Origin: Mesorhizobium sp. 61-13
GTDB lineage: Bacteria; Pseudomonadota; Alphaproteobacteria; Rhizobiales; Rhizobiaceae
Length of the DNA stretch: 64,000 bases
Direction of reading: 5' to 3'
Assembly (NCBI GenBank): GCA_001897075.1
Contig: MKRZ01000089.1
Coordinates: 25,911-89,910, forward strand
Shown: in pieces, positions 11,738 to 33,467 of the stretch
Layout of the letters: the number at the start of each line of letters is the position of its first letter
Numbering within the stretch: position 1 is the stretch's first letter
The notes under the pieces: generated by a model
The model's database searches: none
The model's input: only the letters and a program-made list of their open reading frames with translations
What the model was told of the DNA's origin: nothing
Translations under genes and position numbers: made by a program

Positions 11738-11763
11738 GTTGCTCCTTCACAATACGCTTATTC

Positions 11764-11778: not shown

Positions 11779-11831
11779 CCAAGGGCGAATCACGGTCAAG
11801 ATGCCCATGGGATGCCGTGAAGCTGGCGGCA

Positions 11832-14660: not shown

Positions 14661-14840
14661 CAATTTAGAGTAGCCCTCCGAAAAACGCGAGAGGGTACGC
14701 CATGGTTCGCTATCTGTCTGAAATAGCTAGATTTTCTGAATCGCCGCTTTCACGATCTTATCCGAACCTACGCTACGATTTCCGCCCGCGTGCTTACGTG
14801 GTGCTTACGCGAGAGATCGGCACTGATCGGATGGAATGCC

Positions 14841-16962: not shown

Positions 16963-19839
16963 ATGACCCTCGATCTGTTCAGCGATGCCGAGGCCGAACC
17001 CACCCGTTGGTTCGTCGAGCTTGAGCAATCGACCGGCTCAAAGCCTGTCGACGGCCTCGTTCTTGTCGCTGGTTATGTCCCGACGGGACGTCCTCCCGAG
17101 GAAGTCGCGACCATGGAAAAGGCGCGACGTTACGGCGCGCACTCGGTGTTTTTCGAAGCGGGACGCAATGGGCGAGCCCCCGTCCCGCAGGCCTTCGTCT
17201 TCATCTCCAAGGACGGCACCGACGACAAGGAGTTCGCCGACCTGCACAAGCGGCTGTGGAGCTGGGGCGGCGTTCCAATCCTCTACCGGCGAACGCCCGG
17301 TCAGATTCAGCTCTTCCGCTGTGCGCATGACCCGGACTTCATCTCCGCGACCGGCGAGCAGATCTGCAAGCCCTTCAAGTTCCTCGACATCGGCTCCCGT
17401 ATCGCCGGGAAGGAAGCATGGTGGGATGCCGAGCGGATTCGCAACGGTACGCTCTGGGATGATCCGGATGCCTGCCGCATCATGCTGTCCGCCCAAAAGG
17501 CCGCTCACCGGAAGCTGGTAGACGTCGTCCGTGGACTGAATGACGAACTCAACACCAAGCGCCTGCTAACCGCGCCTTTGCGTCGACGGCTGCTCATCCT
17601 ATCCCTGCTGATCGCATACCTCGAAGAGCGCGGGGTCCTCCGGCCGGAGTTCTTTGGTCGCTATGTGAAGGGCGCGACCCGCTTCTTTGAAGTGTTGCGC
17701 GAAGGCGATGCGCTGGTCGAGATGCTCAAGGCGCTCGAAGACCGCTTCAACGGTCACGTCTTTGCGCTCAAGGATGAGGAAGCCGCGGCGCTGAAGGCCA
17801 GCCGGCAGTTGGGCCGGTTCGCCAGCCTGGTGGAGGGCTACGAGGATACCGGCGGTCAGCTCAGTTTCTGGCGCCTCTATTCTTTCAAGGATCTGCCGGT
17901 CGAGCTGATCAGTCACATCTACCAACTTTTCGTCACCGACACCGACAGTTCCGTCTATACGCCGCCCACCCTGGTTCGGCTGATGCTCGACGAGGCGCTG
18001 AGCTGGGATCGCATCGATCGCCTGATGGCCGGCAAGGAGATCATTCTGGACCCGGCATGCGGCTCTGGCGTCTTCCTCGTCGAGGCGTACAAGCGGCTGG
18101 TGCTGCATTGGCGCAGCCGCAACGATTGGGCCAGGCCCGGGGTCGATGAACTGCGCGCGCTCCTCGAGCGCGTTCACGGCATCGACCTGGAACTGGGCGC
18201 GGTCGAACTGGCCGCGTTCAGCTTGTGCCTGGCGCTCTGCGACGCGCTCGAACCCGAGGAGATCCGCGCCAGCGTCAAGCTCTTCCCCAAGCTGGCCGAC
18301 GCGTCGCTGCATCAGCGGTGTTTCTTTGAAGCTAAGGAAGAAGGTCTGATAGCGGCCCCCGTCGGCGTGCTGATTGGCAATCCGCCTTTCGAATCCAGCC
18401 TCACCACACCGGCGGCAAAGCGCGCCTATGACGCCTATGTCAAACAGCATGGCAAACTGGCCGACCAGCAGGTCGCCTACCTCTTCCTGCACGAGGCCAT
18501 GGGATTGACCGCCAAGGGCGGCGTCCTCAGCATGATCCAGCCCTCGGGCTTTCTCTACAATCAGCATGCCGGCGATTTCCGCGCGAATTTTTTCAAGCGC
18601 TGGAACGTGCGTGAGATCCTCGATCTCGTCTCGGTCCGCGGCCTGTTCAAGAAGGGTGACGCCGATCCCAAAGTCGTTGTCGTCGTCGCAGTGGCGGAGC
18701 CCGCAAAACCAGCATCAACGCTGCTGCACACGGTCTTCCGGAGAAACGGGCGGGCCAATGCCGAGCAGGGATTCGAAATCGACTATTACGATCTCCACCG
18801 CGTGCCGCATGCCGCTCTTTCCGGCAATAGTGACATCTGGAGGGCTAATCTGCTCGGTGGCGAACGTCTTCTGACTTTCGTTCAGCGGCTGCGCGGCCTC
18901 CGCACGCTCGGACACTATGCGGCTGAGCGCGAATGGAACAGCGGTGAAGGGTATATCGCCGGCCAAAAGGGAATCTCGCGACCGGCCGCGCACATCGTCG
19001 GGCAGCAGTTGCTGCCCACCAAGGCATTGTCCGCGACGGGCCTGAACCGATCCGCGCTCACCAAGGTGCCAAAGGCGCCCATCAAGGATCCCAAGTCGCA
19101 GGCGCGCTTCACGCCGCCCCTCCTGCTCGTGAAGGAGCATCAGGATCTCTACAACGCTATGTGGGAGGAGAGCTACCTCACCTACAAGCACGAGATCGTC
19201 GGGTTTGCTGCACCCAAGAAGGACCTGAAGCGGCTGCGCCAAGTTCGCGACTGGATCGCGAACAATCGTCCAGCCCTCCAGGCCTACGTCGCCAGCACGA
19301 GCATTCGCTTGTTCACGCAACGCGCCACCTCGATCGCCAGCGCCGACATCATGGCGCTTCCCTATCCAGAAGACGGTACGCTCGACCTGAGTGCCAATGA
19401 GCAAATCCTGGTCGACGATGTCGTGCGGTACTGGCGCGACTTCGTACGCACCGGCAGTGATTCCGATGTGATGAAGCTCGATGGACGAGAAGCGCTGCCT
19501 GCCTTCGCTGCTTCCTTCACCGCACAGATCAACACGGTCTACCCGACCACGCCGCTGTCGGCGCTTGAACCACAATCGTGGCCCGGCATCATCTGCCAGC
19601 CTTTCGTCTTTGGCGCCGGCCAGGTCGACTGGACCGGCGTCGATGACCTGCGGGGCCGACTGGACAACCTGCTCCGCGAGCAGCGCGGCTCGAGTATCAC
19701 GGTCACGCGCATTGCCCGGATTTACGACGGCAAGTTTGTCTTTCTGCTCAAGCCCGACCGCCTTCGCTACTGGCTCCGGTCGATCGCGCTGCGGGACGCC
19801 GATGACGTGCTCGCCGATCTACGTGCTCAGGGGTTCTAG
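16963..19839 (+). CDS. Large gamma-class N6-adenine DNA methyltransferase (958 aa) with long N- and C-terminal extensions
   Basis: VYTPPTLVRLMLDEAL, motif I LDPACGSGVFLVEAYKRL, HGIDLELGAVELAAFSL, motif IV LIGNPPFES. The flanking roughly 340 and 430 aa have no motif I can name. Confidence 0.8.
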   Translation: MTLDLFSDAEAEPTRWFVELEQSTGSKPVDGLVLVAGYVPTGRPPEEVATMEKARRYGAHSVFFEAGRNGRAPVPQAFVFISKDGTDDKEFADLHKRLWSWGGVPILYRRTPGQIQLFRCAHDPDFISATGEQICKPFKFLDIGSRIAGKEAWWDAERIRNGTLWDDPDACRIMLSAQKAAHRKLVDVVRGLNDELNTKRLLTAPLRRRLLILSLLIAYLEERGVLRPEFFGRYVKGATRFFEVLREGDALVEMLKALEDRFNGHVFALKDEEAAALKASRQLGRFASLVEGYEDTGGQLSFWRLYSFKDLPVELISHIYQLFVTDTDSSVYTPPTLVRLMLDEALSWDRIDRLMAGKEIILDPACGSGVFLVEAYKRLVLHWRSRNDWARPGVDELRALLERVHGIDLELGAVELAAFSLCLALCDALEPEEIRASVKLFPKLADASLHQRCFFEAKEEGLIAAPVGVLIGNPPFESSLTTPAAKRAYDAYVKQHGKLADQQVAYLFLHEAMGLTAKGGVLSMIQPSGFLYNQHAGDFRANFFKRWNVREILDLVSVRGLFKKGDADPKVVVVVAVAEPAKPASTLLHTVFRRNGRANAEQGFEIDYYDLHRVPHAALSGNSDIWRANLLGGERLLTFVQRLRGLRTLGHYAAEREWNSGEGYIAGQKGISRPAAHIVGQQLLPTKALSATGLNRSALTKVPKAPIKDPKSQARFTPPLLLVKEHQDLYNAMWEESYLTYKHEIVGFAAPKKDLKRLRQVRDWIANNRPALQAYVASTSIRLFTQRATSIASADIMALPYPEDGTLDLSANEQILVDDVVRYWRDFVRTGSDSDVMKLDGREALPAFAASFTAQINTVYPTTPLSALEPQSWPGIICQPFVFGAGQVDWTGVDDLRGRLDNLLREQRGSSITVTRIARIYDGKFVFLLKPDRLRYWLRSIALRDADDVLADLRAQGF

Positions 19840-19841
19840 GC

Positions 19842-20594
19842 GTGCTGGCAGATCACGCAGAACCAAACGTCCAATCGGGCGGCCTCGATCCAAACCTTCA
19901 CCTCCCAGCGGCATGGCGCTTGGCCCTTCTGGACTTTATCGCGGATGAGCTCCCGAGGTGGCGTGACGATCCAAAGCGTCCGATCGAAACCGCGGAGACA
20001 TCGCTCACCTCCCGGCTTTGCGCCCACATGAATAGCGCGACCCGAAAGTCGGGCGGATGGGACTTCCTGCAGTTTCGCGTTGAAGAGCCGGATGAACTGG
20101 TCGGCGGCCGTAAACTCGACCTTGTGCCCGCGCCGAGCGCGGCGACGATCTGGATCGACGGCCGTGAGTACACTCAGTACACGCCGCTCATTCCCATCGA
20201 ATGCAAGCGACTACCTATCCCGGCTGCCGGGACCCGAGACCAACGTGAGTATCTCTACAGCGCTTCTTCTTCCACGGGCGGCATTCAACGGTTCAAGGCC
20301 GGCCACCACGGTGCCGCGCACTCAATCGGTGCAATGATTGGCTATATCCAATCTCAGAACATTGATTTCTGGCACGGCCAGCTTCGCGCTTGGCTGAGAG
20401 ACTTGGTCTCAACACCCATCGATGGCTGGACGGCTGACGATGACGTCCAAATAACCAAACAGGATGCGGCCGCAAAGTCAGCGTTGCTCGAGTCCCATCA
20501 CCAGCGAACTGGCCTGCCGGACATTAAACTACATCACCTGTGGATCGACATGACCGGCTCGTCACGACAATCAGCGGATACAAATCATGACTAG
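19842..20594 (+). CDS. PD-(D/E)xK-type nuclease candidate (restriction partner)
   Basis: GTG start 2 nt after the methyltransferase stop. GRKLDLVP...PLIPIECKRLP gives a D...E-x-K arrangement. Confidence 0.55.
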   Translation: MLADHAEPNVQSGGLDPNLHLPAAWRLALLDFIADELPRWRDDPKRPIETAETSLTSRLCAHMNSATRKSGGWDFLQFRVEEPDELVGGRKLDLVPAPSAATIWIDGREYTQYTPLIPIECKRLPIPAAGTRDQREYLYSASSSTGGIQRFKAGHHGAAHSIGAMIGYIQSQNIDFWHGQLRAWLRDLVSTPIDGWTADDDVQITKQDAAAKSALLESHHQRTGLPDIKLHHLWIDMTGSSRQSADTNHD

Positions 20595-20726
20595 CAACAG
20601 CATAAGAAACATATCTTTAGCGCGTTCGGTTGACATTGCCGCCGACTGATCGTTTCCGAATCAACTTGTCTTAGCGCCGCCTTTCCCAGCCGCTAAATGT
20701 AACGGCGCCCGCCTCGGGGAGTTTTC

Positions 20727-23700
20727 GTGGACGATATTTTTCAAAGACTCGTTCGTCGGGATGAGCGCCGCTCCGAAGCCGAAATCCAGGCGGATGTACG
20801 ACAGTTCATCTTGTCCGCGCCCTTTGAGCTCGACGAGGGGGATGTCGCTCTGGTCGCCCTTGAATCCTCAGTCGGCAATCGACAGCGCATTGACGTCGAA
20901 GTTGGCGCTACGGTGATTGAAGTCAAACGCGATCTCCGCCGCGGAAGAGTCAAAGAGGAAGCGATTGACCAGCTTGCGGGCTATGTGGAACTGCGGATGC
21001 AGCAAACCGGCTTGCGATACGTCGGCGTTCTGACGGATGGAACAGAATGGTGTTGCTACCATCTCGTAGAAGGCGGACTAAGGGAGGTATCAAACGCGAC
21101 GTTCGGTTCACCTTCCGATGACTTGAGTCGTCTTGTCGTGTGGCTTGAGGGCGTCCTTGCCACCGCGAAGGGCATTCCGCCCACCCCGCAGAACATTGAA
21201 GCCCGCCTTGGGGCGAGAAGCAGCGCCTACGCATTGGATCGCGCAACTCTCTCCACCCTCTTCCAACAGAACCGCACGAATCCTAGCGTCCAGCTCAAGC
21301 GCACCCTTTGGTCACGGCTGCTCACGTCGGCCCTCGGTACGCAATTCGAGGATACCGACGATCTTTTCATCGAGCACACCCTTCTCGTCAACACGGCCGA
21401 GATTATCGCTCACGCCGTGTTGGGCCTGTCACTCGAGGCCCAAAACCCCGTTTCATTGCTGGGTGGGCACAAGTTTGATGAAAGCGGCATCTATGGTGTC
21501 GTTGAGCCCGACTTTTTCGATTGGGTGATCGAAGTGGACGGAGGCGAGCGTTTTGTGAGGACGCTGGCTAAGAGGCTGGGTCGGTTCGATTGGGAACACG
21601 TCCATCAGGATATCCTCAAGGTTCTGTACGAAAGCATCATCGCAGCCGAGACTCGCCAGCGCATGGGAGAATATTACACGCCCGATTGGCTAGCGGACGT
21701 TGTTGTCCAGCATGCAGTACCTCAGCCTTTGGCAACGCGTGTTCTCGATCCTGCCTGCGGGTCAGGGACATTCTTGTTCCATGCAATCAGATCGTACGTT
21801 GAGGCCGCCGAGCGAGACGGTATGTCTGTTTCCGACATGCTGGACTCGTTGACGAAAAGCGTCATCGGGATGGACCTACATCCTGTGGCGGTAACACTCG
21901 CCCGCGTTACCTACCTTCTTGCCATAGGCCGTGAGCGGCTCACTCACCCAGCACGTGGGACGATCCAGATTCCGGTCTATCTTGGCGACTCTCTGCAGTG
22001 GCAAGAGCAAAGTGCTGACCTCTGGGCTGCTGAGAATCTTGTCATTCGGGTGGACGATAAGCAGGAATTGGTGGGGCCAGAACTGCGCTTCCCTGACGGA
22101 CTACTTGATGATGCCGCCCGCTTCGACCAACTCGTAACCGAACTGGCGAACCGCGCGGCCAAGCGGAAGCCCGGTGCTGCGGTACCCGCCCTCACAGTCG
22201 TATTTCAACGCCTGGCGATTCCAGAGAAATACAGGAAAACAATCGAGGCTACTTTCGCAACGATGTGTCGCTTGCACGACGCAGGCCGGGATCACATTTG
22301 GGGCTATTTTGTCAGAAACCTGGCTAGGCCACTGTGGCTTTCGCGCGAGAAGAATCGCGTCGACGTGCTGATCGGCAACCCTCCCTGGCTCGCTCTGCGA
22401 CACATGACCAGCGACATGCAAGTCGCATTTCGAAACATGAGTGAGGCGCGCGGGTTGTGGGCCGGTGCCGAGAACGCCACACACCAGGATTTGTCGGGGC
22501 TCTTCGTCATTCGCGCCGCCGAGCTTTATCTGAAGCGCGGAGGCCGTTTCGCGCTCGTGATGCCAAACGCTGCATTGGATCGCGAACACTATTCCGGCTT
22601 CCGTCGCGGATACTATGGGGACGCCACGATCGGGCTGAAGCTCCAATTCAGCGCCTCGTGGGACCTGCGTCGTATACGTCCCCACTTCTTCCCTCGTGCG
22701 GCATGTGTCGCATTCGGCACGCGCTCGACACGTGGGGAGGAAATGACGGACGAAGCTACGATTTGGTCAGGACGACTGCCTCGGCCTAATGCACCCTGGT
22801 CAGAGGCTCGTCCGCTCCTCGTGCGCAGTGAAGGGCATGTGACGCGTACCGGCATGGGCCTCAGGTCACCCTATCACCCTGCTTTCGCCCAAGGTGCCGT
22901 CTTGCTTCCGAGATTCTTGTTCTCGGTTGAGGACCAAGTGAAACCACCCCTTGGCTTGCCCTCCGGGAAAGTAGCGGTCAAGTCGTCGAGGAGCGTCCAA
23001 GAAAAGAAGCCTTGGAAAGAGCTTCCAGCTCTAGAGGGCGTGGTCGAAAGCGAGTTCGTAAGACCCTACTTCAACGGCGAAAACATCCTTCCTTATTTGG
23101 CGGGCTCTCCAGAAAGAGCCGTCATCCCCTGCAATCCTAGCCGTCTTCTAACGAGCGACGAGATCGAGTTTCATCCTGGATTGCAGCACTGGTGGGAGCG
23201 CGCTGACGCGCTATGGAAAGAGCATTCCGGCGGAAAAATATCTTCGCTGCGGGGCCAACTGGACTACCAATCCAAGCTGTCGAAGCAGTTGCCCGTAGTT
23301 CCTCTTCGTGTCGTCTACAACCGCTCCGGAATGCATGTGGTCGCGGCAAAGGTGCGCGACAGGCGCGCGCTGATTGCAAGTGGATTGTATTGGGCAGCAG
23401 TGCATTCCGATGCAGAAGCTAATTTCCTTTGCGCAATCCTTAATGCTCCGATCACCACCGAATTGGTCCGGCCGTATATGACTTACGGCAAGGACGAGAG
23501 GGACGTAGCCAAGCACATTTGGGAGTTGCCAATCCCGACCTTCGACCCTGACGATACCGTTCATGCGCGGCTCGCCGAGCTGGGGCAATGGGCCGAACGC
23601 GAAGTTTCGAATTTTGCCATCAATGATAGCGTGCACTTCTCCGCCGTTCGTCGACACATTCGCCAGCACCTCGCCGCGTCCGCCGAGGCGGAGGAAATTA

Positions 23701-23729
23701 ACAATACCGTGTTTGAGCTGCTCGGGTAA
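20727..23729 (+). CDS. Type IIG/IIL-like restriction-modification enzyme (nuclease-methyltransferase fusion, 1000 aa)
   Basis: D-x8-E-x-K (RIDVEVGATVIEVKRDL), GEYYTPDWLADVV, motif I VLDPACGSGTFLFHAI, motif IV LIGNPPWLALRHM. Same layout as the open-ended gene at 1-2711. Confidence 0.8.
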   Translation: MDDIFQRLVRRDERRSEAEIQADVRQFILSAPFELDEGDVALVALESSVGNRQRIDVEVGATVIEVKRDLRRGRVKEEAIDQLAGYVELRMQQTGLRYVGVLTDGTEWCCYHLVEGGLREVSNATFGSPSDDLSRLVVWLEGVLATAKGIPPTPQNIEARLGARSSAYALDRATLSTLFQQNRTNPSVQLKRTLWSRLLTSALGTQFEDTDDLFIEHTLLVNTAEIIAHAVLGLSLEAQNPVSLLGGHKFDESGIYGVVEPDFFDWVIEVDGGERFVRTLAKRLGRFDWEHVHQDILKVLYESIIAAETRQRMGEYYTPDWLADVVVQHAVPQPLATRVLDPACGSGTFLFHAIRSYVEAAERDGMSVSDMLDSLTKSVIGMDLHPVAVTLARVTYLLAIGRERLTHPARGTIQIPVYLGDSLQWQEQSADLWAAENLVIRVDDKQELVGPELRFPDGLLDDAARFDQLVTELANRAAKRKPGAAVPALTVVFQRLAIPEKYRKTIEATFATMCRLHDAGRDHIWGYFVRNLARPLWLSREKNRVDVLIGNPPWLALRHMTSDMQVAFRNMSEARGLWAGAENATHQDLSGLFVIRAAELYLKRGGRFALVMPNAALDREHYSGFRRGYYGDATIGLKLQFSASWDLRRIRPHFFPRAACVAFGTRSTRGEEMTDEATIWSGRLPRPNAPWSEARPLLVRSEGHVTRTGMGLRSPYHPAFAQGAVLLPRFLFSVEDQVKPPLGLPSGKVAVKSSRSVQEKKPWKELPALEGVVESEFVRPYFNGENILPYLAGSPERAVIPCNPSRLLTSDEIEFHPGLQHWWERADALWKEHSGGKISSLRGQLDYQSKLSKQLPVVPLRVVYNRSGMHVVAAKVRDRRALIASGLYWAAVHSDAEANFLCAILNAPITTELVRPYMTYGKDERDVAKHIWELPIPTFDPDDTVHARLAELGQWAEREVSNFAINDSVHFSAVRRHIRQHLAASAEAEEINNTVFELLG

Positions 23730-23877
23730 AAGTCGCGACCCACACCGGTTAGTTTCGTTCGAATAACTTCGACCTTGGTGTGTTTCTCAACCGGGTGCAT
23801 TACAATACACTACAAATCACGTCGCGGGGGCGACAAGCTACGCGCAGCGTGGCACGTCACCGGTCGGCGTCTTCGCG

Positions 23878-24735
23878 GTGACCCCCATGCTCCAGTTCGA
23901 CGGCCGTTGGAGATTTGACAGTCCAGGTCCGATAGAATCCGGCGTCGACGACGCGTTCCTTGACCTCATCAATCGGATTGCCGGACAGGCTCCGCGTAAA
24001 TCCATCCTCGAGCATTTCAAGTCACGGTTCGCGGCCGCGGCCAACATCCAATACTGGCCGAGCAGCAACGAGCGGTTCGCCGCCGAGGATCTCACTACCG
24101 CCATGTCCGAAGCAGCGGCGAACGCGCCTTTATTCATAGAAGCGTTCTGGCTTGGCTGTGAGGAACTCCGGCTCCGTCATCCCGAAATGGTGTTGCCCGA
24201 CGCGGGGCGGATCAACCGCATCCTCACCGACACAAGCGCCGGCTATCAGCTCGATCCGCCGATGCTGGTTGCCACCCGTGTGCATATTCCCATCACGGTT
24301 CCGACCCCGCCTCCATCACTGGATGTGCAGGCCCGGTCGCTCATCGAGCAGGCATTGCAGGCGTCAGAACGCGCCCTGGCCGAGGGGAACGGCCGACAGG
24401 CCGTCCAGGAAGTACTGTGGCTCCTGGAGACCATCTCCACTGCATTTCGCAGTCCTGAGGTGTTCGACGGCACCATTCAGGGACGCTACTTCAACAAGAT
24501 CATCGGTGAGTTGCGCCTGCGCGGTCGCGGGCATCAGGAACAGATCCTGCAATGGATGATGACATTGCATGGATACCTGTCCTCCCCCACCGGCGGCGGG
24601 GTGCGCCATGGTGTCGACCTCAAGGAAGGCCTCGCCTTGGGAATCGAAGAGGCGCGTCTCTACTGCAATCTCATCCGTAGCTACCTGACATTTCTCATGG
24701 CGGAGCATGAGCGCCTGACAAGGCGCGCCGCATGA
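23878..24735 (+). CDS. Hypothetical protein A of a three-gene operon (285 aa)
   Basis: GTG/ATG start. The C-terminal half looks helical and contains ..LHGYLSSPTGGGVRHGVD.., a weak Abi_C/HEPN-like resemblance only. Its stop overlaps the next ATG. Confidence 0.6.
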   Translation: MTPMLQFDGRWRFDSPGPIESGVDDAFLDLINRIAGQAPRKSILEHFKSRFAAAANIQYWPSSNERFAAEDLTTAMSEAAANAPLFIEAFWLGCEELRLRHPEMVLPDAGRINRILTDTSAGYQLDPPMLVATRVHIPITVPTPPPSLDVQARSLIEQALQASERALAEGNGRQAVQEVLWLLETISTAFRSPEVFDGTIQGRYFNKIIGELRLRGRGHQEQILQWMMTLHGYLSSPTGGGVRHGVDLKEGLALGIEEARLYCNLIRSYLTFLMAEHERLTRRAA

Positions 24736-25619
24736 CCGTCTATATGACGAAGACTTGGGGATTTGGATCGCCATCGGGGCCACTTCAATTTAGCCAGCGC
24801 GGGTGGCGGGACAGAGCTCGCGGCCTCCTCCGGCTAGGCGATCTTGTGGTGATCGTCGGCACGATGGGCGATGAAACCCATTCCGAAGAGCGCGGCATGA
24901 TCCTTGGCCTCATGGAGCCGACCACGACGACCGTCAGCTCACTCGATTACGACCTCGCCCGTGGCCCACGCGATTTCGATGAGGCTGGCAACTACCGCTG
25001 GCCGTTCGGGCTCGAGCTCTTGCGTGCCTGGCGCTTCCTCGAACCAAGAACCGCTTTGTCGGCGATATCGCCACGGCGCTTCAGCATGGATTCCGCGCAG
25101 GGAATCGTACCGCTCCTAGCAGATGAGGCCGAGGCGATCCTGCTCTTGCCCAGAGAACCGGTCGCGCTGCTCCGGCCCGCTCGAGCCGAGGCACGGGTCG
25201 CGGGTCTAGAGGCAGCTCGCCGGCGAGGTGCCCCGCCACCAACGACCACGCGCACCGGCATCATGCATATGCGGAGGGCACCAACCTTCACCTACGCCAT
25301 GATGATCGAAGGCGCTTCACCCCCTTCGTTCAAGATTGGCTGGGCCTTTGACTGGAGGCAGCGGGAGCGCAGTTTCAACCAGGCATCCATGCCCGAGCTC
25401 GGTGGCGTTCGATATCGCACGATCCTCCACGAACTGTGGGACACGGCCATAGATGCCTTTCGCATGGAGCAGGCGCTCCTCCGCCATTTCAATGCTCTCC
25501 GGCATGCGCGCAATCAGGAGGTGGTATCCGCGGTTGCGGCAGACACGATCCAGAAGTCGTGGATCGACTACCTCTCGAACCACAGGAAGGGGAGCACGCG
25601 GGGAGGAAAAGGCACATGA
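24732..25619 (+). CDS. Hypothetical protein B: PUA/EVE-like N-terminal region plus GIY-YIG/T5orf172-like C-terminal region (inferred)
   Basis: N-terminus: KTWGFGSPSGPLQFSQRGWRDRARGLLRLGDLVVIVGT...YRWPFGLELLRAW. C-terminus: FTYAMMIEG..FKIGWAFDWRQRERSFN...FRMEQALLRHFNALRHARNQEV, which follows a GIY..YIG..R..E order. ATGA overlaps at both ends. Confidence 0.55.
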   Translation: MTVYMTKTWGFGSPSGPLQFSQRGWRDRARGLLRLGDLVVIVGTMGDETHSEERGMILGLMEPTTTTVSSLDYDLARGPRDFDEAGNYRWPFGLELLRAWRFLEPRTALSAISPRRFSMDSAQGIVPLLADEAEAILLLPREPVALLRPARAEARVAGLEAARRRGAPPPTTTRTGIMHMRRAPTFTYAMMIEGASPPSFKIGWAFDWRQRERSFNQASMPELGGVRYRTILHELWDTAIDAFRMEQALLRHFNALRHARNQEVVSAVAADTIQKSWIDYLSNHRKGSTRGGKGT

Positions 25620-26452
25620 AGAAGCCGTCCGCGATGGTCAGCAAGAGCACCAGGTTTCCCTTCCAGGTTGCCGTATCCTGTTGGATTGACCTGCTCGGTT
25701 ATGGCGAGATGATCTCCGCCTCTGGGTTCAATCCACTGCACGCCGAAGCGCGCGATGCCCTCGCTCGCATCAGGACGTTTCATCGCATCGTCGCCGAGCA
25801 CAGCGCGAGATACTTTCCGACATTGGTGAATGATGGGGCGGTCGCCTATCGTGACCTCTCCCTGCGATCGCGCTCACCTACTCACGATTTTCTCGTGCGG
25901 GCGTGGAAGATGTTCGAGGCGGTTCGAAAAGCGGACACGGACAGTGGCCATCCAGGACCGCGGATGGTCTTGGCCTGCGGGTTTCGCATGCTGGGACGGC
26001 GTGCCGGCCTGGACGCGTCTCGCGAACACTTCAAATCAATTGTCGATCGGTTGCAGAGGGGCGGTATCGGCGCCGAGCAAGCGGTGCGCGAGGCAGCATC
26101 GATGCGGCCGCGCTTCGATATCATCCCGCAACTGCAAGCGAACTTCGCCTTCACAAAAGCCTATGTCGCCGAGCAGACCGGGACGAAGGGCAAACTTCCT
26201 GGTCCCGCATTCTACGTGGACATGGCGATATTCGGCGACGACCGTCCGCAATGGATTGATCTCGGCCCTGACATTGACTGGGCACACCCCAAGTTGAACT
26301 TACATGCGGTTTTCGCCGAGGCCCGTGGGTTGCAAGATGGGCGACATCCGAGCGGCGGCCCGACGGATATTCGCGATGGCCTTGCCGTTGCGCAGACGCT
26401 TGCCAACGATCCAAATGTCCTGGCGGCACTGCGCGCCGCGGAAAAATCGTAA
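25616..26452 (+). CDS. Hypothetical protein C: class III nucleotidyl-cyclase-like (palm-domain) protein (inferred)
   Basis: Motif order: VAVSCWIDLLGYGEM (F-x-D-I-x-G-F-T-like), TLVNDGAVAY (G-D-like second Asp), PRMVLACGFRMLGRRAG (R-I-G-I-H-x-G-like), ANFAFTKAYV (V-N-x-A-S-R-like). The start ATG at 25616 overlaps the gene B stop. Confidence 0.5.
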   Translation: MKKPSAMVSKSTRFPFQVAVSCWIDLLGYGEMISASGFNPLHAEARDALARIRTFHRIVAEHSARYFPTLVNDGAVAYRDLSLRSRSPTHDFLVRAWKMFEAVRKADTDSGHPGPRMVLACGFRMLGRRAGLDASREHFKSIVDRLQRGGIGAEQAVREAASMRPRFDIIPQLQANFAFTKAYVAEQTGTKGKLPGPAFYVDMAIFGDDRPQWIDLGPDIDWAHPKLNLHAVFAEARGLQDGRHPSGGPTDIRDGLAVAQTLANDPNVLAALRAAEKS

Positions 26453-26488
26453 ACATCGCCTGGGAACGGTCTTCGTCCCTATCTACGG

Positions 26489-29400
26489 CTAGTCCGCAGG
26501 AACACCCGTCCCGCCAGGCTGCTTCTTCGAGCGCTTCTGACTACGCCGGTCCAGAGCGGCGATCATCTCTGCCGGCCGCGAAACATCCAACACAACGACC
26601 TCCAATTTGCCTTTCAGGCGTGTCGGAATATCGCCAAGGAGCATCGCCTCCAGCCCCTCAGCGCTTGAAGGGGCTTGTTGCCCATCGCTCCGGGTGGGGA
26701 TCGAAAACTCGGTCCCGAACCAGAAGACCAGATACACTCCGTGTCCGTCGGCCCCCGCGTCCGATGCGTACCCGCTGAGCTGACTGAGTGGTGAAGTCCA
26801 AAGCTCCTTATTGTAGTGACGCTTAGCTTCGATCGGCAGGTTCTTGCCGGCGTGGCTGAGAAGCAGAACGTCGGCTCGCGTGTTCTCCCCGCGCCGTGCT
26901 TCAGGGAGACTGGCGACAATCCCGTATCTCTCCAGGCGAACCCGCATCAGTTCGAGCAGCCGGTCCCGATCCTCATTTTCAATCTGTGGTGTCGTTGCCG
27001 CACCGTCCTTGTCGGTGTTCCAGAATCGTTTCCATGGGGTTTCGCTGCCTGTTCGCAACGTGCTCCTGTACCGATCGATCTCCTCAAGGACCACCGCTGT
27101 GAGATCTGCCGGACTTGCAGGGGCTCCCCCCGAAAGCGCCGCGACGAGGTCGCCCACTGGCGGCGCCACATAGAGATCATCCCGCTTCATCCTGGCATGT
27201 TCGGCGGCCGCGTGGGCGAGCTGCGGCTTCCAACTCGGATGTACCTCTGATGAGAGCGTTTTCAGAATCTCGCCTGCGTCGTTACTTTTCGAAGCGCTCA
27301 GGCGGCGGATGGCTGCCCTGATGATCCCGCTGACGGTGTTGGAGTGCCGCCAGTCATCCTCCTCGGCCTCGTGGGCTTTCCCAAGAACTGCGATTCGGAT
27401 GCGATCCAGCACATCGGGCTGCGGAGACAATTCAAAGAGGGCCGTCGCCAGATCGCCGTTGGGTCGCAACAACGCGCCCCGGACCTGCTCATCGGACAGT
27501 CCGGCAGAATATGCAGTCGGGTCGAGAGCCAGCGCGACAAAGCTCCAGATTTCGCGCTGCTCATCGCCAAGATCGGTCCGCTTTAGTGCATCGTCGGCAA
27601 AGCCCGCCAAATCGTCGGCAGCAAGCACAGTTGCGGCAGCGACCAAAGCCTGCCGCAATGCGGGCATCGGCAGGTTAGGCCGATGGTTCAGCAGTTCACG
27701 AAGGCATGCCGCGATAAGCCCATGCTCTTCGGCGCTCACCAAGTGATGAAGGCCATTGAGATCGTCATCTCCAGCGTCAAGGGCAGCTTTCCAGTACCGC
27801 AACATCTGGCTGACGCCTTGCTCGCGATCCTGCGCGAGACGTTGCACGGCCCAAGTGGCAAGCGAGGGTCCGTCGTCGCCCGCAAAATAGCTCTGACGCA
27901 TTCCGACCAGCGCGCAGACCAGTGGGGCCGCTGCAAGCTCCGCTTCCCGACCATGCAAGAGCCCCTGATGCAGTCCGGCGGCTACAACATATTCCTGCGC
28001 ATAGGCGCCGTTGGTTGCCTCCGCCCGCCCGAGACTCTCCGCATCGACCTTGATGTCGGTGTGGATCGCGAACTGGACAAACCCTTCTGCAATGGCTGCC
28101 GTAATCTCCCCGTTGGTGTAGCTCGTGACCTTGGCGAGCGGCTCCTCCTTCTTTGATATTCTCGCGTTGCGGTAGTGATCGGCCGCCCACTTCAGCGCGC
28201 CGAATTCGCTCGCGACGCCGCTCGCGATCGCGGCGAGCTTCGGTGTCAACGCAGCGATGTTGTCCTTCCGCGAGACTTCCGTCTTTGCGTCCTGTTGGGC
28301 CTGCCTTTGCGCCTGCTGCTTCTTCCACTTGGCGTTCGGGTCGGACAGCAGCAACTTTATGAATCCGGTGTGGCCACCTTCCTCTTTGAGAATGGAGACC
28401 ATCTTTTCGCGCCACTTTGGCCAACGCGCTTCACCGCGCGCCGTGTACGCGGCAATCTGGAAGAGCCGTTTGCGCCATGGTCCCTTCGCCTCGTTCCGGG
28501 CCAGCACAATCAGTGCCTCGACCAACGCCTCCGAGGGGAGCCGGCGCATGGTCGACATGTAGTGGTTCACAACAACCCAAGGCCCATCGGTGGGTGCGCC
28601 GGATTTCGACATGGCGAGAAAGAAGTCGAGTTCCCGCCGCTGAGGGTCGGCGTCCATCCACTTCTGCATCGCCTCGACCACGTCGCTATCGAGCATGTCC
28701 CAGACATGGTCGCGGGCGTTGTTTATCCAAGTCCACAAACGCTCGGCGTCAACCTCGGGACGCCGTTCAATTGTGGACACCAGCGCCTGATCGATGAAGA
28801 AGCGGACTTGCGATTTCTGTCGGAGCCCGCCCGTCGACCCGTGCGAAATCGGCAGATCGAACAGGTCTTCCGGCGCAGATCGACGCAGGGCAAGAGCCAG
28901 CGCATTCAACGCCCCGCGGTCCTCAACCTCATCATCATCCGATGGTGCGGGCAATGCGCTGAAATCGGCCAGGAGTTTGCGAATCTCGGATGCCGCTATC
29001 GCGTCGGCCGGCATTGCCGCCAGCAGTCTTGCCCTCAGTACAACCTGGCCGGCGTCGACGGGCTGAAGCTCCAGCTCAGATATCAGGGCTCGGCGTATTG
29101 CCGTTCGGTCCCCTCCGGCTCTGGCGATCACTTCTGAGGCGCGTTCGCGCATCCACAACGGTCGGCCGGCTTCGAGAACGATCTCACGAAGTTTGCTCTG
29201 AATTCCCTGGACCGGTAGTCCGTCCGCAAGAGCCTGCAGGACCGTAAGCTGGAGATGACTGCGGATGTCCGTGTCCAGGATCGTCGCGAAGTCCCCGGCG
29301 AGGTCCTCGCCGGCGAGCCCGCCCAGCACGGTCGCGTCGTCCTGCGACGAGAGAAAATAGGGATCGTCGCGGTCGAGATTGAGAAGGATCGCTTTCCGCC

Positions 29401-30556
29401 CCAGGTTGTCGAAAGCGGCAGCATCACCATAAGCGAGCACGGTCGCAGCATCCCGATCGATGAGACGGATTGCGCCCTGCGCGTCTCCCCGCTTGTGAAG
29501 ATGCGCCGCGAACCAGGCATAAAGTCCTCGAAGCTCGCTGGGTGCCTGGCGATCCGCGCCGGTGATGAGCGCGATGGCACGACGCAGGGGGAAAGCGTGA
29601 TTGTTTCCGGTCCCCGTTACGATCCTTGCCAGGAAACGAGCAGCGAGAAACTCTGCCACCGTGCGATGGCAGACCTCGAAGGCGTGACCCTCGCCGCGAA
29701 ACAACGCCGTGTCCAAGGCGGCAGCAACATGTGCAGGCTCGATGTTGAGCCCGTTCGTGCTCACATACTCATTGGCGCCACCCGTTTGAGGTGGCATGGC
29801 ATTGGAGCGCCAGACCGCCCTGGCACCGGAAGCGAGGACGTAGAAGCATAGTCTTGAGGCCGCTTCGACAATGGCCTCGACGCTGGGTCGGGGATCGATC
29901 ACACGCTCGGGATCGTATTCGTGGGCCAGTGCCCAGATGGCCTTTTCGAACAACTCGAAGCGCGTTCCAGGCCATGTTCCATCGGCCGCCACGGCCGAGT
30001 GAAGCAACCGGAGACTCAAGGGGCTTTCGAGGAAGGCCGCTGCGCCGCGCGTCCGCGCCTCGATCACGAATGCTCGCGGATCCACGGCGCCGAGCGCGGC
30101 CAGAACGGCTTCGGCCTCGCTTTCGTCCAAGGGCAAAAGGCGAGCCACGACGATGGAACTATTGTTGGCCGCCCGCCGCATGGCCCCCAGATCGGCGGCG
30201 TCGCGCCAGTCCTCAGCCCGACAGGTAAGGCGCCAGCGATGATGTTTGCTCGCTGACAATGTGTTGGCGAGTTGCAGGAGCTTGTCCTTGCCGTTCTCGC
30301 CCGTCCGATACTCATCCAACGCATCGAGGTAGACCGTATCGGGGGCCGGCAGCGGAACACCGCTCATCGCTTCGCGACACGTGACGACTTCGCCCCCTTC
30401 GGCCGCGGCCTCATGGCGCAATGCCGTCGACTTACCGAGGCCGGGCTCGCCGAGCAGAACGACACACGGTTCATCGCGCAGCGAACTCAGGCGGCGTTCG
30501 CTCGCTTCTGCCTCGCCGTGAACAAGGACGCGTCGGTCTAGGGATGCAATCTTCAT
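26489..30556 (-). CDS. NACHT/STAND-like P-loop NTPase with long helical middle region and a C-terminal PD-(D/E)xK-like domain (about 1355 aa)
   Basis: Walker A VVLLGEPGLGKST and Walker B VYLDALDEY near the N-terminus. C-terminus: ...RADVLLLSHAGKNLPIEAKRHYNKELW (D...E-x-K). Preferred start is ATG at 30556 (MKIASLD). Confidence 0.75.
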   Translation of the reverse strand: MKIASLDRRVLVHGEAEASERRLSSLRDEPCVVLLGEPGLGKSTALRHEAAAEGGEVVTCREAMSGVPLPAPDTVYLDALDEYRTGENGKDKLLQLANTLSASKHHRWRLTCRAEDWRDAADLGAMRRAANNSSIVVARLLPLDESEAEAVLAALGAVDPRAFVIEARTRGAAAFLESPLSLRLLHSAVAADGTWPGTRFELFEKAIWALAHEYDPERVIDPRPSVEAIVEAASRLCFYVLASGARAVWRSNAMPPQTGGANEYVSTNGLNIEPAHVAAALDTALFRGEGHAFEVCHRTVAEFLAARFLARIVTGTGNNHAFPLRRAIALITGADRQAPSELRGLYAWFAAHLHKRGDAQGAIRLIDRDAATVLAYGDAAAFDNLGRKAILLNLDRDDPYFLSSQDDATVLGGLAGEDLAGDFATILDTDIRSHLQLTVLQALADGLPVQGIQSKLREIVLEAGRPLWMRERASEVIARAGGDRTAIRRALISELELQPVDAGQVVLRARLLAAMPADAIAASEIRKLLADFSALPAPSDDDEVEDRGALNALALALRRSAPEDLFDLPISHGSTGGLRQKSQVRFFIDQALVSTIERRPEVDAERLWTWINNARDHVWDMLDSDVVEAMQKWMDADPQRRELDFFLAMSKSGAPTDGPWVVVNHYMSTMRRLPSEALVEALIVLARNEAKGPWRKRLFQIAAYTARGEARWPKWREKMVSILKEEGGHTGFIKLLLSDPNAKWKKQQAQRQAQQDAKTEVSRKDNIAALTPKLAAIASGVASEFGALKWAADHYRNARISKKEEPLAKVTSYTNGEITAAIAEGFVQFAIHTDIKVDAESLGRAEATNGAYAQEYVVAAGLHQGLLHGREAELAAAPLVCALVGMRQSYFAGDDGPSLATWAVQRLAQDREQGVSQMLRYWKAALDAGDDDLNGLHHLVSAEEHGLIAACLRELLNHRPNLPMPALRQALVAAATVLAADDLAGFADDALKRTDLGDEQREIWSFVALALDPTAYSAGLSDEQVRGALLRPNGDLATALFELSPQPDVLDRIRIAVLGKAHEAEEDDWRHSNTVSGIIRAAIRRLSASKSNDAGEILKTLSSEVHPSWKPQLAHAAAEHARMKRDDLYVAPPVGDLVAALSGGAPASPADLTAVVLEEIDRYRSTLRTGSETPWKRFWNTDKDGAATTPQIENEDRDRLLELMRVRLERYGIVASLPEARRGENTRADVLLLSHAGKNLPIEAKRHYNKELWTSPLSQLSGYASDAGADGHGVYLVFWFGTEFSIPTRSDGQQAPSSAEGLEAMLLGDIPTRLKGKLEVVVLDVSRPAEMIAALDRRSQKRSKKQPGGTGVPAD

Positions 30557-30764
30557 GAGCAAGAAATACTGTCGCCCGTGTCAGCGACAAAGAACAAAAT
30601 GCGAGCCCTGGGCTGCTCCACATCGCGTTCGCTGTGGATTCTCCATATTGCAGGAGCCTTGCTTTCGACCGCAGTTTCTTCGACAGACTTAGCAGGGGAC
30701 CGACAGCACACCGGCAATCCTCGGCTCGGCAACCCAACGGTCACAAACTGCGAGGCTTTCGAGC

Positions 30765-31613
30765 TTGCCGGCCATTATCGACGTCTGGAGCGCAAACACA
30801 TTCGACTCGGTCTTGCTTAAGTTCCTGACGTCGAAGGCAGACCTGGTCCGGGCCTATTTTGACACCGACAGGGACATCTTTCTTTCCTACGATCTAGGCC
30901 GTGGGCAACCGCGACCGATGATGCGCCCCGACAACCCCTACGCCTCGGACTTTTATAGTCTGCTCGACACCGCCGACGAACTCATGGCTGCGCGCACAAT
31001 CCGCGCCTTTCACTACACGCGGCTTACCGATGATGAAGTCACCGACCTGTCTCGTTCCGGCATCCATCTGTCGACACCGGCAACGCTGCTCCGGCGCTTC
31101 AACACACTGGTTACATCAGCCGTTTTGCCGCGCGCGATAGCCGACAGCCTATACGCGCAGAGTCCGTTCCACAGCGATCAGCGCGAAGCCCGAGCCGGAA
31201 AGTTCTGGATGGTATCGCATCCCACACCACCTGAAGATGGCGGCGTTGTCCCGCTCATGAAGCACTGGGGTGGCGAAGTCGCCTCCATGTGGGTCAGCGA
31301 CCCGGGGCTCTTGGCTCCATTGCAGGCCATCGGCCGCGCACGCATCCTCGAGGTGGCCGTGCCGCTCGCGTTGACACGGCACAGCTACGCCGCCGGCAAG
31401 GCGGTCGTCGCCACCTTTGGTCGCTCCGTGGGAGCTATCCCGGAAAAGGGGGCCTTCGACCTCTATATAGATCAGGCATTGCCGCCTTCCGCCGTTCTTT
31501 CCGTCCACACCGAAGGCGACCCTGCCTACACCGCTGTGGGCACCACTTATCCCGCAGGGTTTACCGACGTGGATGCAGGTCGCTGGAAAGAACTGACTGG
31601 CGAGGAAGACTGA
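30765..31613 (+). CDS. Hypothetical protein (282 aa)
   Basis: Long ORF, TTG start in the track, divergent from the NACHT-like gene. No confident motif. Confidence 0.5.
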   Translation: MPAIIDVWSANTFDSVLLKFLTSKADLVRAYFDTDRDIFLSYDLGRGQPRPMMRPDNPYASDFYSLLDTADELMAARTIRAFHYTRLTDDEVTDLSRSGIHLSTPATLLRRFNTLVTSAVLPRAIADSLYAQSPFHSDQREARAGKFWMVSHPTPPEDGGVVPLMKHWGGEVASMWVSDPGLLAPLQAIGRARILEVAVPLALTRHSYAAGKAVVATFGRSVGAIPEKGAFDLYIDQALPPSAVLSVHTEGDPAYTAVGTTYPAGFTDVDAGRWKELTGEED

Positions 31614-32404
31614 TCGCGCGTGCCACCTGGCCAGTCGGCCAACACCATGCGTGAGCGCCCGTCGAGGGCGGCTATTGGGCCGAGCGCAGCAAGATCAAGG
31701 CCGGAAGCAGTGTCATCCTCGAACTGCGCGGCTCGACGAAATCGCCGGCCAATGCCGAATGATAACGCATCGGCAAATTGCAGACCCGCTACATGGCTGG
31801 ATGGAGCGGTCAATATGCCACCTCCTATCAACCAGGGCGCATCCTCACTTGCGTCGCGCTCAATGCCGTTTCTGGCACGATCCTGATCGATCATGATCAT
31901 GGCCGGCCGGCCTTCAGCGTACAATTCTTCCTGGAGCGACCGCAGCATCACGCGCTTGAGCGCGGCATTCCGACTGACGCCGAACTCAGCGTTTCCCTGC
32001 TCGCGCCACTGCCGTCTCATCTGTTTGTATTGGCCGGCGGAAAGATAGCTGTAGCGCATGCTGGCCCCGGAGCGATCGACCAGTTCGCGCATCAGATGAA
32101 ACATCCCCATCCGGTCCGAAATACTGACGTCGCGCCAGCGTGAGCCCTCCTTCGGGTTGAAGACTTCCGCCCCGTGAAACTCAAGCTGACCTAGCTGCCT
32201 CAGACGCTCATTGAGAACGCTCTCGATCTCCGAGTAGCGCTCCGAATCCAACTTTATCGCTGCGAGCACACGCAGGTCGGGGACCAAAGCCTTTGTGCCA
32301 CCGCCATGAAAATCGGTATCATCCACAAACACCAGTGTCGTTCCCGGCTCACGCATCTCCGCGAGAACATAGGTGAGATCGAACTCTCCGCTGGACGCCG
32401 TCAT
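31547..32404 (-). CDS. DUF3800-like protein
   Basis: MTASSGEF..LVFVDDTDFHGGG near the N-terminus and HVAGLQFADALSFGI near the C-terminus match DUF3800 landmarks. The 3' end overlaps the convergent gene by 67 nt. Confidence 0.6.
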   Translation of the reverse strand: MTASSGEFDLTYVLAEMREPGTTLVFVDDTDFHGGGTKALVPDLRVLAAIKLDSERYSEIESVLNERLRQLGQLEFHGAEVFNPKEGSRWRDVSISDRMGMFHLMRELVDRSGASMRYSYLSAGQYKQMRRQWREQGNAEFGVSRNAALKRVMLRSLQEELYAEGRPAMIMIDQDRARNGIERDASEDAPWLIGGGILTAPSSHVAGLQFADALSFGIGRRFRRAAQFEDDTASGLDLAALGPIAALDGRSRMVLADWPGGTRDQSSSPVSSFQRPASTSVNPAG

Positions 32405-32641
32405 CGTGTCTTTCCTCACCTCGGCATTCCGAATCGGCCCCACTGAAGCAGGCCTGTGGCGAAACGAGCTGAATGCTTCGCGGACCGCCGACTCGGCGCG
32501 ATCCGAACCGAGCAGGATACTACCAGAAACTCGTCCGCCTCGGATGACCTCCAATGATGGTTCGCGTCCCCATCGAGGTATGGCCCGCGATCAAGTTTGG
32601 CGCCGGCGCCGCGAGTCCGATTGACTCATTCCCATTGAATA

Positions 32642-32656
32642 GAACAAATAGGGAAC
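32642..32656 (+). promoter_or_regulatory. LexA (SOS) box GAAC-N7-GAAC upstream of imuA
   Basis: GAACaaataggGAAC with TTGACT 15 nt upstream, 50 nt before the imuA ATG. Confidence 0.75.
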
Positions 32657-32705
32657 ATACCAACCCAGAAATCCATTGGGAAGACCGTTTGAGAGTGATT
32701 TATCC

Positions 32706-33467
32706 ATGGGTCAGCCGGCCGCCAGCCCTGCCATCGCTGCGCTTCGCGAGCGAATCGCACGCCTCGAAGGCGGGCCGGCGCGTCATCGTGCGGCGCTTCC
32801 GTTCGGCGTCCCCGCTATCGATAGGGCACTGCCGGGAGGTGGGCTGGCGCTCGGGGCGCTGCATGAGGTGGCGGGCGGCCGCAACGGGGCAATCGATGGG
32901 GCGGCGGCGGCGTTATTTGCCGCCGGCATCGCCGCGCGCACCAAAGGCAAGGTGCTCTGGTGCGTCACCCGGCAGGATCTCTTCGCCCCGGCGCTCGCCC
33001 AGGCAGGGCTGCTGCCCGGCCGTGTCGTCTATGTCGAGGCCGGCGACGAAGCCTCGGTGCTCGCCTGTTTCGAGGAAGGGCTTCGCCATGGCGGGCTCGG
33101 CGCCGTCGTCGCGGAACTGGCCCGTCTTCCCATGACCGCCTCCCGCCGACTGCAACTGGCCGCCGAGACATCCGGCGCCATCGGCATCGCTATCCGCCGC
33201 TGGCGCCGACAGACCGAAGCCACCGATTTTGGACAACCGACCGCCGCGGTCAGCCGCTGGCGCGTCTCCGCGCTTCCCTCCCGCCCCTTGCCGGTTCCCG
33301 GCATCGGCCGCGCCCGCTGGCAGCTCGAACTCATCCGGGTGCGGGCGGGAGAAAGCGCCGATTTCGAAGTGGAAGCCTGCGATGACAAGGGTCGTCTCGC
33401 TCTATTTTCCGACCTGGCCGACCGATCGCCTGCGGCGCGCGATGGGGACATCCGCGCCCTCGGCTGA
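32706..33467 (+). CDS. imuA: ImuA (RecA/SulA-like component of the mutagenesis cassette)
   Basis: MGQPAASPAIAALRERIARLEG...ALPFGVPAIDRALPGGGLALGALHEV... First gene of the imuA-imuB-dnaE2 order. Confidence 0.85.
   Translation: MGQPAASPAIAALRERIARLEGGPARHRAALPFGVPAIDRALPGGGLALGALHEVAGGRNGAIDGAAAALFAAGIAARTKGKVLWCVTRQDLFAPALAQAGLLPGRVVYVEAGDEASVLACFEEGLRHGGLGAVVAELARLPMTASRRLQLAAETSGAIGIAIRRWRRQTEATDFGQPTAAVSRWRVSALPSRPLPVPGIGRARWQLELIRVRAGESADFEVEACDDKGRLALFSDLADRSPAARDGDIRALG

Follow-up and report, generated by a model that had tools for sequence, protein, structure and literature searches.

The cyclases of Pycsar and Pucsar are defined by the effector with which each is paired (PMC11224242; bioRxiv 10.64898/2026.08.12.744502). 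The T5orf172 domain is a proven nuclease in Odn of phage ICP1, where it uses a catalytic Arg and a catalytic Glu (PMC8263062). EVE-HNH enzymes are proven modification-dependent restriction enzymes (PMC7897488), and EVE-GIY-YIG fusions are predicted to be modification-dependent (type IV) restriction enzymes (PMC7641849, PMC7897488). In a 64,000-nucleotide stretch of contig MKRZ01000089.1 from Mesorhizobium sp. 61-13 (the window), three overlapping genes, A, B and C, encode an AbiJ-like protein, a protein with a predicted T5orf172 domain and a predicted divergent class III nucleotidyl cyclase. A first-pass annotation of the sequence had proposed that the three genes form one dedicated signalling system, in which a nucleotide made by C controls a nuclease, B and/or A. 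The distribution of the three families contradicts this proposal. The block from 23840 to 26490 is probably a cassette that was assembled recently and moves horizontally, and its three defence-island genes would be independent in mechanism and not obligate partners.

Organization of the A-B-C cassette

The three genes lie on the plus strand and were located from the list of open reading frames (ORFs) of the window. The features of the cassette are as follows.

23840..26490, plus strand: A-B-C cassette, 2.65 kb, 92-94% nucleotide identity with five other alphaproteobacterial genomes (blastn)
23887..24735, plus strand: gene A, 282 aa, AbiJ-like; N-domain (aa 1-~135) AbiJ_NTD4-like, C-terminal helical domain (aa ~140-282)
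24732..24735, plus strand: ATGA stop/start overlap of A and B, read from the sequence and kept in the A-B pairs of other loci
24732..25619, plus strand: gene B, 295 aa; predicted N-terminal beta-barrel (aa 1-~145), disordered linker (aa 151-179) and T5orf172 domain (aa ~183-290)
25616..25619, plus strand: ATGA stop/start overlap of B and C, read from the sequence
25616..26452, plus strand: gene C, 278 aa, ATG start; predicted divergent class III nucleotidyl cyclase homology domain

Both overlaps are present exactly where the first-pass annotation had placed them. The ORF of A is listed from a GTG at 23878 (23878-24735). Homologues of A are 279-283 aa long and have the N-terminus MLxF(D/E)G, and the true start is therefore the ATG at 23887, which gives the 282-aa product. 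The purine tract GGGGAGGAAAAGG is located directly 5' of the ATG of C at 25616. A scan of 23600-26700 for promoters and terminators gave counts at chance level, and a hairpin at 23856-23882 in the conserved 47-nt leader folds no better than shuffled sequences (z -0.03).

A, B and C are real genes of conserved families. Homologue searches found 426 clusters at 90% identity for C, 349 for B and 1969 for A, and every named member of the three families is annotated as 'hypothetical protein'. Searches of Pfam, NCBIfam, PADLOC, PHROG and the PDB with the window proteins gave no significant match, and the NCBIfam antiphage and PADLOC models match none of the three.

Occurrence of the three genes in other genomes

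The first-pass annotation had itself named synteny of the trio in other genomes as the refuting test of its proposal. The trio was seen only in a shallow clade of copies that are at least 92% identical. Loci of C were collected by a pattern scan of GTDB, with one genome per species, and A and B were sought in the resulting 59 loci with hidden Markov models (HMMs). These loci come from Alpha- and Gammaproteobacteria, Acidobacteriota, Bacteroidota, Myxococcota, Verrucomicrobiota and Desulfobacterota. B stands next to C in only 5 of the 59 loci (L001 to L005), where C is 92-94% identical to that of the window, and A is present in 4 of these 5. Neither A nor B was found within 10 kb of C in the other 54 loci, 46 of which have at least 1.8 kb of upstream sequence. 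A similar separation is seen for B in a set of 79 metagenomic loci. C is downstream of B in none of the 53 loci that have a downstream flank, and A is upstream of B in 8 of the 56 that have an upstream flank, the remaining 48 being without A. Many of these B genes are monocistronic between opposite-strand genes. A occurs without B and C in 6 of 6 distinct contexts, where it follows a HEPN_Toprim_N gene, a YaaC gene, a 340-aa unannotated gene downstream of a HigBA-like pair, a HigBA-like pair directly, AbiEi/AbiEii, or a PIN gene. Since each family is normally found without the other two, the block is most likely a cassette of three independent genes and not a signalling system.

The solo and trio versions of the proteins do not differ in length or in the residues that are invariant in the family alignments, and nothing suggests an adaptation that is specific to the trio. 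The ATGA overlaps are uninformative. Elsewhere C overlaps unrelated genes, namely Fic in L007 (GTGA) and the 3' end of ThiC in L029, and in L147 there is an overlap of A with AbiEii (TGATG). Small genes of the A and C type habitually land flush against the 3' end of the upstream gene.

The five related genomes differ in how much of the region they share with the window. In L001 (Oryzibacter) the blastn match is confined to 23840-26490 of the window, at 92% nucleotide identity. In L002 (Pseudotabrizicola) and L003 (Shinella) it runs from 23840/23842 to 30621 and includes the trio and a gene for an EruA-like ATPase, and in L005 it runs from 23842 to the end of the contig with the EruA-like block co-linear. 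L004 (Breoghania sp., 9582-10837) matches only 25206-26462 of the window. It has no A and has lost the first half of B (HMM positions 158-287 remain), and its C is full length. L001, L003 and L005 have one left flank in common, and the left flanks of L002 and of the window differ from it and from each other; on the right, L001 and L004 share a flank that lacks EruA. Homology ends sharply at 23840 and 26490, and the flanks differ between genera. No direct or inverted repeats were found at the ends of the cassette, and a megablast of the region against plasmids gave no match.

Protein C

The AlphaFold2 model of C, built from a 66-sequence alignment, has a predicted local distance difference test score (pLDDT) of 85.8 and a predicted TM-score (pTM) of 0.80. 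When this model was compared with the PDB by Foldseek, all of the top 50 matches at E <= 1e-3 were class III adenylyl or guanylyl cyclases. The best E value was 3.4e-6, with TM-scores (TMt) of 0.6-0.7 (up to 0.70), and the matches include Cya2, Rv1625c, soluble guanylate cyclase and mammalian adenylyl cyclase. The modelled structure of C is that of a class III nucleotidyl cyclase, a cyclase homology domain (CHD) with a beta-alpha-beta-beta-alpha-beta palm, as the first-pass annotation had suggested from the order of the motifs. The motifs it had pointed to are present in the window protein, and their key residues are invariant in the family alignment. They follow one another as WIDLLGYG (D25), NDGAVAY (N72-D73), RMVLACGFR (R116/G122/R124) and QANFAFTK (Q174/N176). 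The invariant residues are W23, D25, G28, Y29, G30, N72, D73, R116, G122, R124, Q174 and N176, and K181 is nearly invariant (at least 90% conserved). D25 and D73 are putative metal-binding residues, through which C probably still binds metal and a nucleoside triphosphate (NTP). The C protein of the window lacks the Met of TLVMNDG, just before the invariant N72-D73 (25822-25830, residues 70-72). This Met is present in all aligned homologues shown, including those that are 82-89% identical.

C shares with canonical class III cyclases such as Cya2, Rv1625c and soluble guanylate cyclase the predicted overall CHD fold and the order of the motifs. Its invariant D25, D73, R116 and N176 may correspond to the two metal-binding Asp, the phosphate-binding Arg on beta4 and the Asn of the Asn/Arg pair on alpha4. 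However, it differs from them in several ways. There is no detectable sequence similarity. The Pfam model Guanylate_cyc (PF00211) matches neither the window protein nor any of the 66 family members at E <= 10, a search of PDB sequences with the family profile found no cyclase, and no PADLOC family matches C at E <= 0.1, the Pycsar and CBASS cyclase models included. An hhalign comparison of the C family with two ordinary class III cyclase domains from the fetched loci, one of them a rhizobial cyclase, gave a non-significant E of 0.087 and was excluded as evidence; in its register D25, D73 and R116 align with the two canonical Asp residues and the canonical Arg. C also carries a helical insert of about 45 aa (aa ~126-170) where the arm region usually stands, and the Lys that specifies purine is not evident. 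From the sequence comparison, a Lys appears to take the place of the Arg of the N-x-x-x-R pair, offset by one residue (K181 relative to N176). Finally, C has no regulatory domain. It consists of a single CHD with the insert and a short helical tail, and neither a separate sensor domain nor an effector domain was seen.

The neighbours of C do not point to a partner. When all ORFs within 5 kb of C were clustered across the 59 loci, no shared partner family was found, and among its 80 immediate neighbours in 40 loci the commonest Pfam family accounts for at most 2. These neighbours span ThiC, GcvP and a tRNA synthetase to Fic, TrwC, type IIG restriction-modification (R-M) enzymes and reverse transcriptases. 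The statistics rest on ORF lists and contig gene calls, and a gene caller based on third-codon-position GC (GC3) missed C in many high-GC loci. The genes directly 5' of C encode Fic, ThiC, UvrD, an ABC-F ATPase, inositol monophosphatase, a type IIG enzyme, TrwC relaxase, a SpoIIE phosphatase, an FAD oxidase and a non-specific endonuclease. The defence genes among the neighbours include SoFic, DRT-type reverse transcriptases, PDC-S24, AIPR, SduA_C and type IIG enzymes. An 84%-identical C belongs to a prophage (L153, region 2902-5834), where it has the gene of a 660-aa AAA_15 ATPase on one side and those for the major capsid, protease and head on the other. A HigBA-like pair and an integrase lie upstream in this prophage, and the position of C is moron-like. 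An 82%-identical C follows Z1-DUF4420-AIPR, and a 75%-identical C stands beside SduA_C and DUF3800 genes. The small proteins encoded just 5' of C on two plasmids, of Blastomonas and R. sullae, have no homologue in any other C locus. The one on the Blastomonas plasmid pBSY18_4 (L151, 4528-4980) is a 150-aa ORF that overlaps the start of C by 13 nt and begins MKIFWSWQ, which we take to resemble the start of a TIR-like/CAP12-type domain. C was not found in 50,697 phage genomes, and only 2 matches were found among 2.9 million viral contigs.

Protein B

The AlphaFold2 model of B (pLDDT 80.5) has two domains separated by the disordered linker. The C-terminal half is, in this model and by its matches, clearly a T5orf172 domain of the GIY-YIG superfamily and of the nuclease type, and the GIY-YIG/T5orf172-like pattern noticed in the first-pass annotation is thus confirmed. 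Among 65 members of the B family, Pfam T5orf172 matches 37 and MUG113 matches 21 (best E 1.7e-4); window B itself is below threshold (E 0.098-0.18). A Foldseek search of BFVD gave 70 matches at E <= 1e-3 (best E 1.4e-5), led by T5 Orf172, CapR-homology and GIY-YIG proteins, and the best compact match has a TMt of 0.72 and a root-mean-square deviation of 2.3 A. The GIY-YIG structures of Slx1 and BH0048 are among the PDB matches of the model. Y188, K201, G203, W204, R211, E246, N261 and E263 are invariant in the 65-sequence alignment. R211 and E246 follow the (T)Y..KIGW strands in the expected order, and their equivalence to the residues of I-TevI and Odn comes from motif order only.

The N-terminal domain is less certain. 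The first-pass annotation had likened it to PUA/EVE modified-base readers. The structural side of this comparison is kept by weak Foldseek matches in the PDB to 2g2x, an EVE-type structural-genomics protein (E 0.043, prob 0.91), to the YTH-like N-domain of S. marinus McrB, 6n0s (E 0.16, prob 0.87), and to YTH domains (E 0.1-1). The sequence side is not, as none of the Pfam PUA-clan models (PUA/EVE/ASCH/YTH) matches any of the 65 family members. W90, W100 and Y88 are invariant aromatic residues of this domain and are candidates for a pocket that would hold a flipped modified base. On the basis of the model, the PUA/EVE-like assignment is plausible but not secure.

Protein A

An exhaustive profile search gave 606 representatives of the A family at 50% identity. 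AbiJ_NTD4 (PF18863) matches 16 of 50 family members weakly, with a best E of 0.015 that is below the gathering score. In remote relatives (P0484, P0492, P0508, P0444, P0501 and P0460) the N-terminal 130-150 residues of A are found again in fusions, with TIR_2 in five proteins, of which one also has EAD8, or with Mrr_cat. The TIR-fused relatives match AbiJ_NTD4 at E 0.0015-0.06, again below the gathering score. This exchange of partners suggests that the N-domain is a sensor or adaptor that conflict systems can exchange as a module.

In protein A the first-pass annotation had noticed only a weak Abi_C/HEPN-like RHG element. For the C-terminal domain an Abi_C signal does exist, but it is weak (E 0.013-0.014) and comes from two remote relatives of this domain only. 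The invariant motif, SSPTGGGVRHG (S232-G238, R240, H241, G242), has R and H adjacent in GVRHG and is not a canonical Rx4-6H motif; in a possible R210/R212...H216 pairing the Arg positions are variable. By sequence comparison A is best described as having an AbiJ-like architecture, with an exchangeable N-domain and a helical, possibly HEPN, effector.

A is also present on 58 plasmids, often straight after AbiEi/AbiEii. In plasmids H10-H13 genes of the A family lie right after AbiEi/AbiEii, for example on the Agrobacterium tumefaciens Ti plasmid NC_002377.1 at 131820-132665, and in L147 (2222-4855) A follows AbiEi/AbiEii with a 1-nt overlap. There may be a recurrent association between AbiE and A.

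Proposed roles of A, B and C

What the analysis shows is the gene structure, the predicted folds, the conservation and the distribution of the three families; their biochemical activities and defence role, as given below, are inferred. A, B and C would be co-transcribed through tight packing, and each would work independently. A would be a single-protein abortive-infection or toxin candidate with a putative RNase activity, in which an AbiJ_NTD4-type N-domain may be coupled to a helical Abi_C/HEPN-like domain. B would be a single-chain nuclease of the modification-dependent restriction type. Its PUA-like (EVE/YTH-type) reader would dock on modified nucleic acid, and its T5orf172/GIY-YIG domain would cut by means of Arg211 and Glu246.

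C would be a solitary class III cyclase homologue that has no dedicated effector beside it, and its product, or its consumption of NTP, would therefore have to act on something encoded elsewhere or on the nucleotide pool. It is conceivable, but in our judgement unlikely, that the C family represents a new type of immune or conflict gene, a solitary class III cyclase that is inserted singly into defence islands, plasmids and the moron regions of prophages. Such a cyclase could flood the cell with a nucleotide or deplete one upon infection, or its signal could reach receptors whose genes lie elsewhere. C could also have been wired secondarily to the neighbouring A and B nucleases in the lineage of the window.

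Alternative explanations

Several points weigh against the independence of the three genes and against a defence role for them. The trio has been kept intact, with its 4-nt overlaps, in at least four genera and moves as a unit, and a functional operon predicts the same. The A-B pair and its overlap are conserved down to about 66% identity of B, which hints at some link between A and B. We know of no established defence mechanism for a solitary cyclase without a cognate effector. The association of C with defence is qualitative only, the PUA-like assignment of the B N-domain and the HEPN assignment of A are weak, and the activities of all three proteins are predicted ones.

The main rival to a cassette of three independent genes is a true two-gene unit of A and B, in which the AbiJ-like HEPN protein works with or restrains the PUA-T5orf172 nuclease, with C as an unrelated later addition. 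In the 8 metagenomic loci with A immediately 5' of B the same 4-nt overlap is found at a B identity of 66-77%, the flanks of these loci differ, and their nucleotide identity to the window is only about 70%. All of the A-linked B proteins are among those closest to window B. However, the 48 B loci that lack A, the monocistronic B genes and the six contexts of A without B all speak against a unit, and A attaches equally tightly to AbiEii, HigA-like and PIN genes. The pattern can be explained if A and B were linked once and one clade inherited the linkage. We consider a two-gene unit doubtful.

Another explanation is that the three genes, or some of them, have no immune role and are ordinary accessory cargo that accumulates in variable regions. 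C could be a regulatory cAMP/cGMP cyclase, B a homing-endonuclease-like selfish T5orf172 gene and A the toxin of a degenerate toxin-antitoxin module. C is found beside housekeeping genes (ThiC, GcvP, inositol monophosphatase, ABC-F) as often as beside defence genes, none of the three proteins is matched by a PADLOC or NCBIfam antiphage model, and T5orf172 domains are common in phage homing-endonuclease-like genes (PMC8263062). On the other hand, the neighbourhoods of A are dominated by toxin-antitoxin, Abi and R-M genes, and several neighbours of C, such as SoFic, the DRT-type reverse transcriptases, AIPR, SduA_C and the type IIG enzymes, are defence genes. The near absence of C from the phage genomes and viral contigs does not favour cargo either, and insertion beside core genes is typical of small mobile defence genes too. 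We regard accessory cargo as distinctly improbable.

The three-gene signalling model, in which cyclase C makes a cyclic nucleotide on infection that activates nuclease B and/or the HEPN-like A, draws on the predicted cyclase fold and the putative catalytic Asp residues of C, on the nuclease-type domains of B and A, on the overlaps and joint movement in five genomes and on the defence-island location, but it is very unlikely and already largely refuted by the distribution of the families: co-occurrence is absent outside the copies that are at least 92% identical, trio and solo versions are alike in length and conserved residues, L004 keeps C with no A and a truncated B, the PADLOC Pycsar and CBASS models do not match, and A and B show no match to cyclic nucleotide monophosphate (cNMP)-binding, SAVED, CARF or STING domains.

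The surrounding island

The trio lies between a type IIG enzyme and a NACHT-like ATPase, as the first-pass annotation had it. The cassette is located in the cargo region after a tyrosine integrase, and its surroundings are a mosaic, integrase-associated defence island in which positions 1-16200 of the window are a mobile-element backbone. The features around the cassette are as follows, with the strand where it was noted.

3377-4330: ArdC-like anti-restriction protein
6302-6994: ParA/VirC1 ATPase
8831-10012: DUF6791-ThiF protein
10674-11399: IrrE-like M78 peptidase
11832-12596: N6/N4 DNA methylase
12999-14645: large serine recombinase
14790-16193: tyrosine integrase, upstream of the cassette
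16963-19839: second type IIG R-M enzyme, 958 aa
20727-23729: type IIG R-M enzyme upstream of the trio, 1000 aa (PADLOC REase_MTase_IIG, E 1.9e-77)
26489..30621, minus strand: EruA-like block, outside the trio; co-linear with the trio in L002, L003 and L005, absent in L001 and L004
26489-30562, minus strand: EruA-like NACHT ATPase, 1357 aa, convergent with the trio (NCBIfam antiphage_EruA, E 1.5e-280, 934 bits, cutoff 1000)
30765-31613: unannotated ORF, 282 aa, at the right edge of the island
31547-32554, minus strand: weak DUF3800 protein, at the right edge of the island
32676-33467: 263-aa ORF without a Pfam match, after the DUF3800 protein

In L064/L065, a stretch of DNA some 2 kb upstream of an A-B pair has 72% identity to the integrase region of the window (14616-16141). 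Between the tandem type IIG genes (16963-23729) there is a 250-aa ORF (19842-20594) that has no family match and starts 3 nt after the stop codon of the first enzyme. A literature search on EruA/HyoA returned no relevant paper. The GC content is 56-64% up to about 33 kb of the window and 61-72% beyond, and at the right edge of the island (~30600-33500) there is a rise at about 33 kb, from about 0.62 to 0.71. The 263-aa ORF at this edge may be ImuA-like.

Comparison with known systems

The likeness of A to a described system is to lactococcal AbiJ, an abortive infection protein that has an N-terminal domain and an Abi_C HEPN domain. A is a single gene with weak similarity to the AbiJ_NTD4 N-domain and to the Abi_C C-domain, and its N-domain is combined with other effectors (TIR, Mrr), as happens typically in conflict systems. 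A differs from AbiJ in that all of its matches are below the Pfam thresholds and its best-conserved motif is not the canonical Rx4-6H. B is comparable to the PUA-superfamily modification-dependent restriction endonucleases, such as the EVE-HNH enzyme VcaM4I, the EVE-GIY-YIG fusions and the proteins with McrB N-domains. It has a predicted reader-like beta-barrel followed by a nuclease domain, it is encoded by a single gene and it is located in a defence island. B is unlike them in that its N-domain has no Pfam PUA/EVE/ASCH/YTH match and a structural match that is weak, and in that its nuclease belongs to the T5orf172 branch. Both A and B are new families whose architectures are known.

With Pycsar and Pucsar, C shares the predicted class III cyclase fold, the defence-island location and, in the window, adjacent proteins of the nuclease type. 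It differs from them in matching no PADLOC cyclase model and in having no conserved neighbour anywhere in its family. No adjacent cNMP-binding effector, transmembrane or TIR, was found in the window or among the 80 immediate neighbours of C. C differs from CBASS in its modelled fold, a class III palm and not the Pol-beta-like fold of the CD-NTases, and in its lack of a PADLOC match. Membership in CBASS was ruled out by the fold and membership in Pycsar or Pucsar by the missing linked effector, in each case together with the PADLOC result.

If the trio were a signalling system, it would be a new architecture for cyclic-nucleotide immunity, and the distribution data argue against this. What remains is three sizeable families: the AbiJ-like A, the type IV restriction-like B with its PUA-like and T5orf172 domains, and the divergent solitary class III cyclase C. 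A lesson from this locus is that ATGA overlaps and joint transfer in a defence island do not on their own prove a functional system. The genuinely unusual element is the widespread, unannotated, effector-less cyclase, which is found in defence islands, prophages and plasmids, and this solitary cyclase is the part most worth testing. The known defence cyclases, those of CBASS, Pycsar, Pucsar and type III CRISPR, are all defined by a linked effector, and a cyclase that has none would need a different logic.

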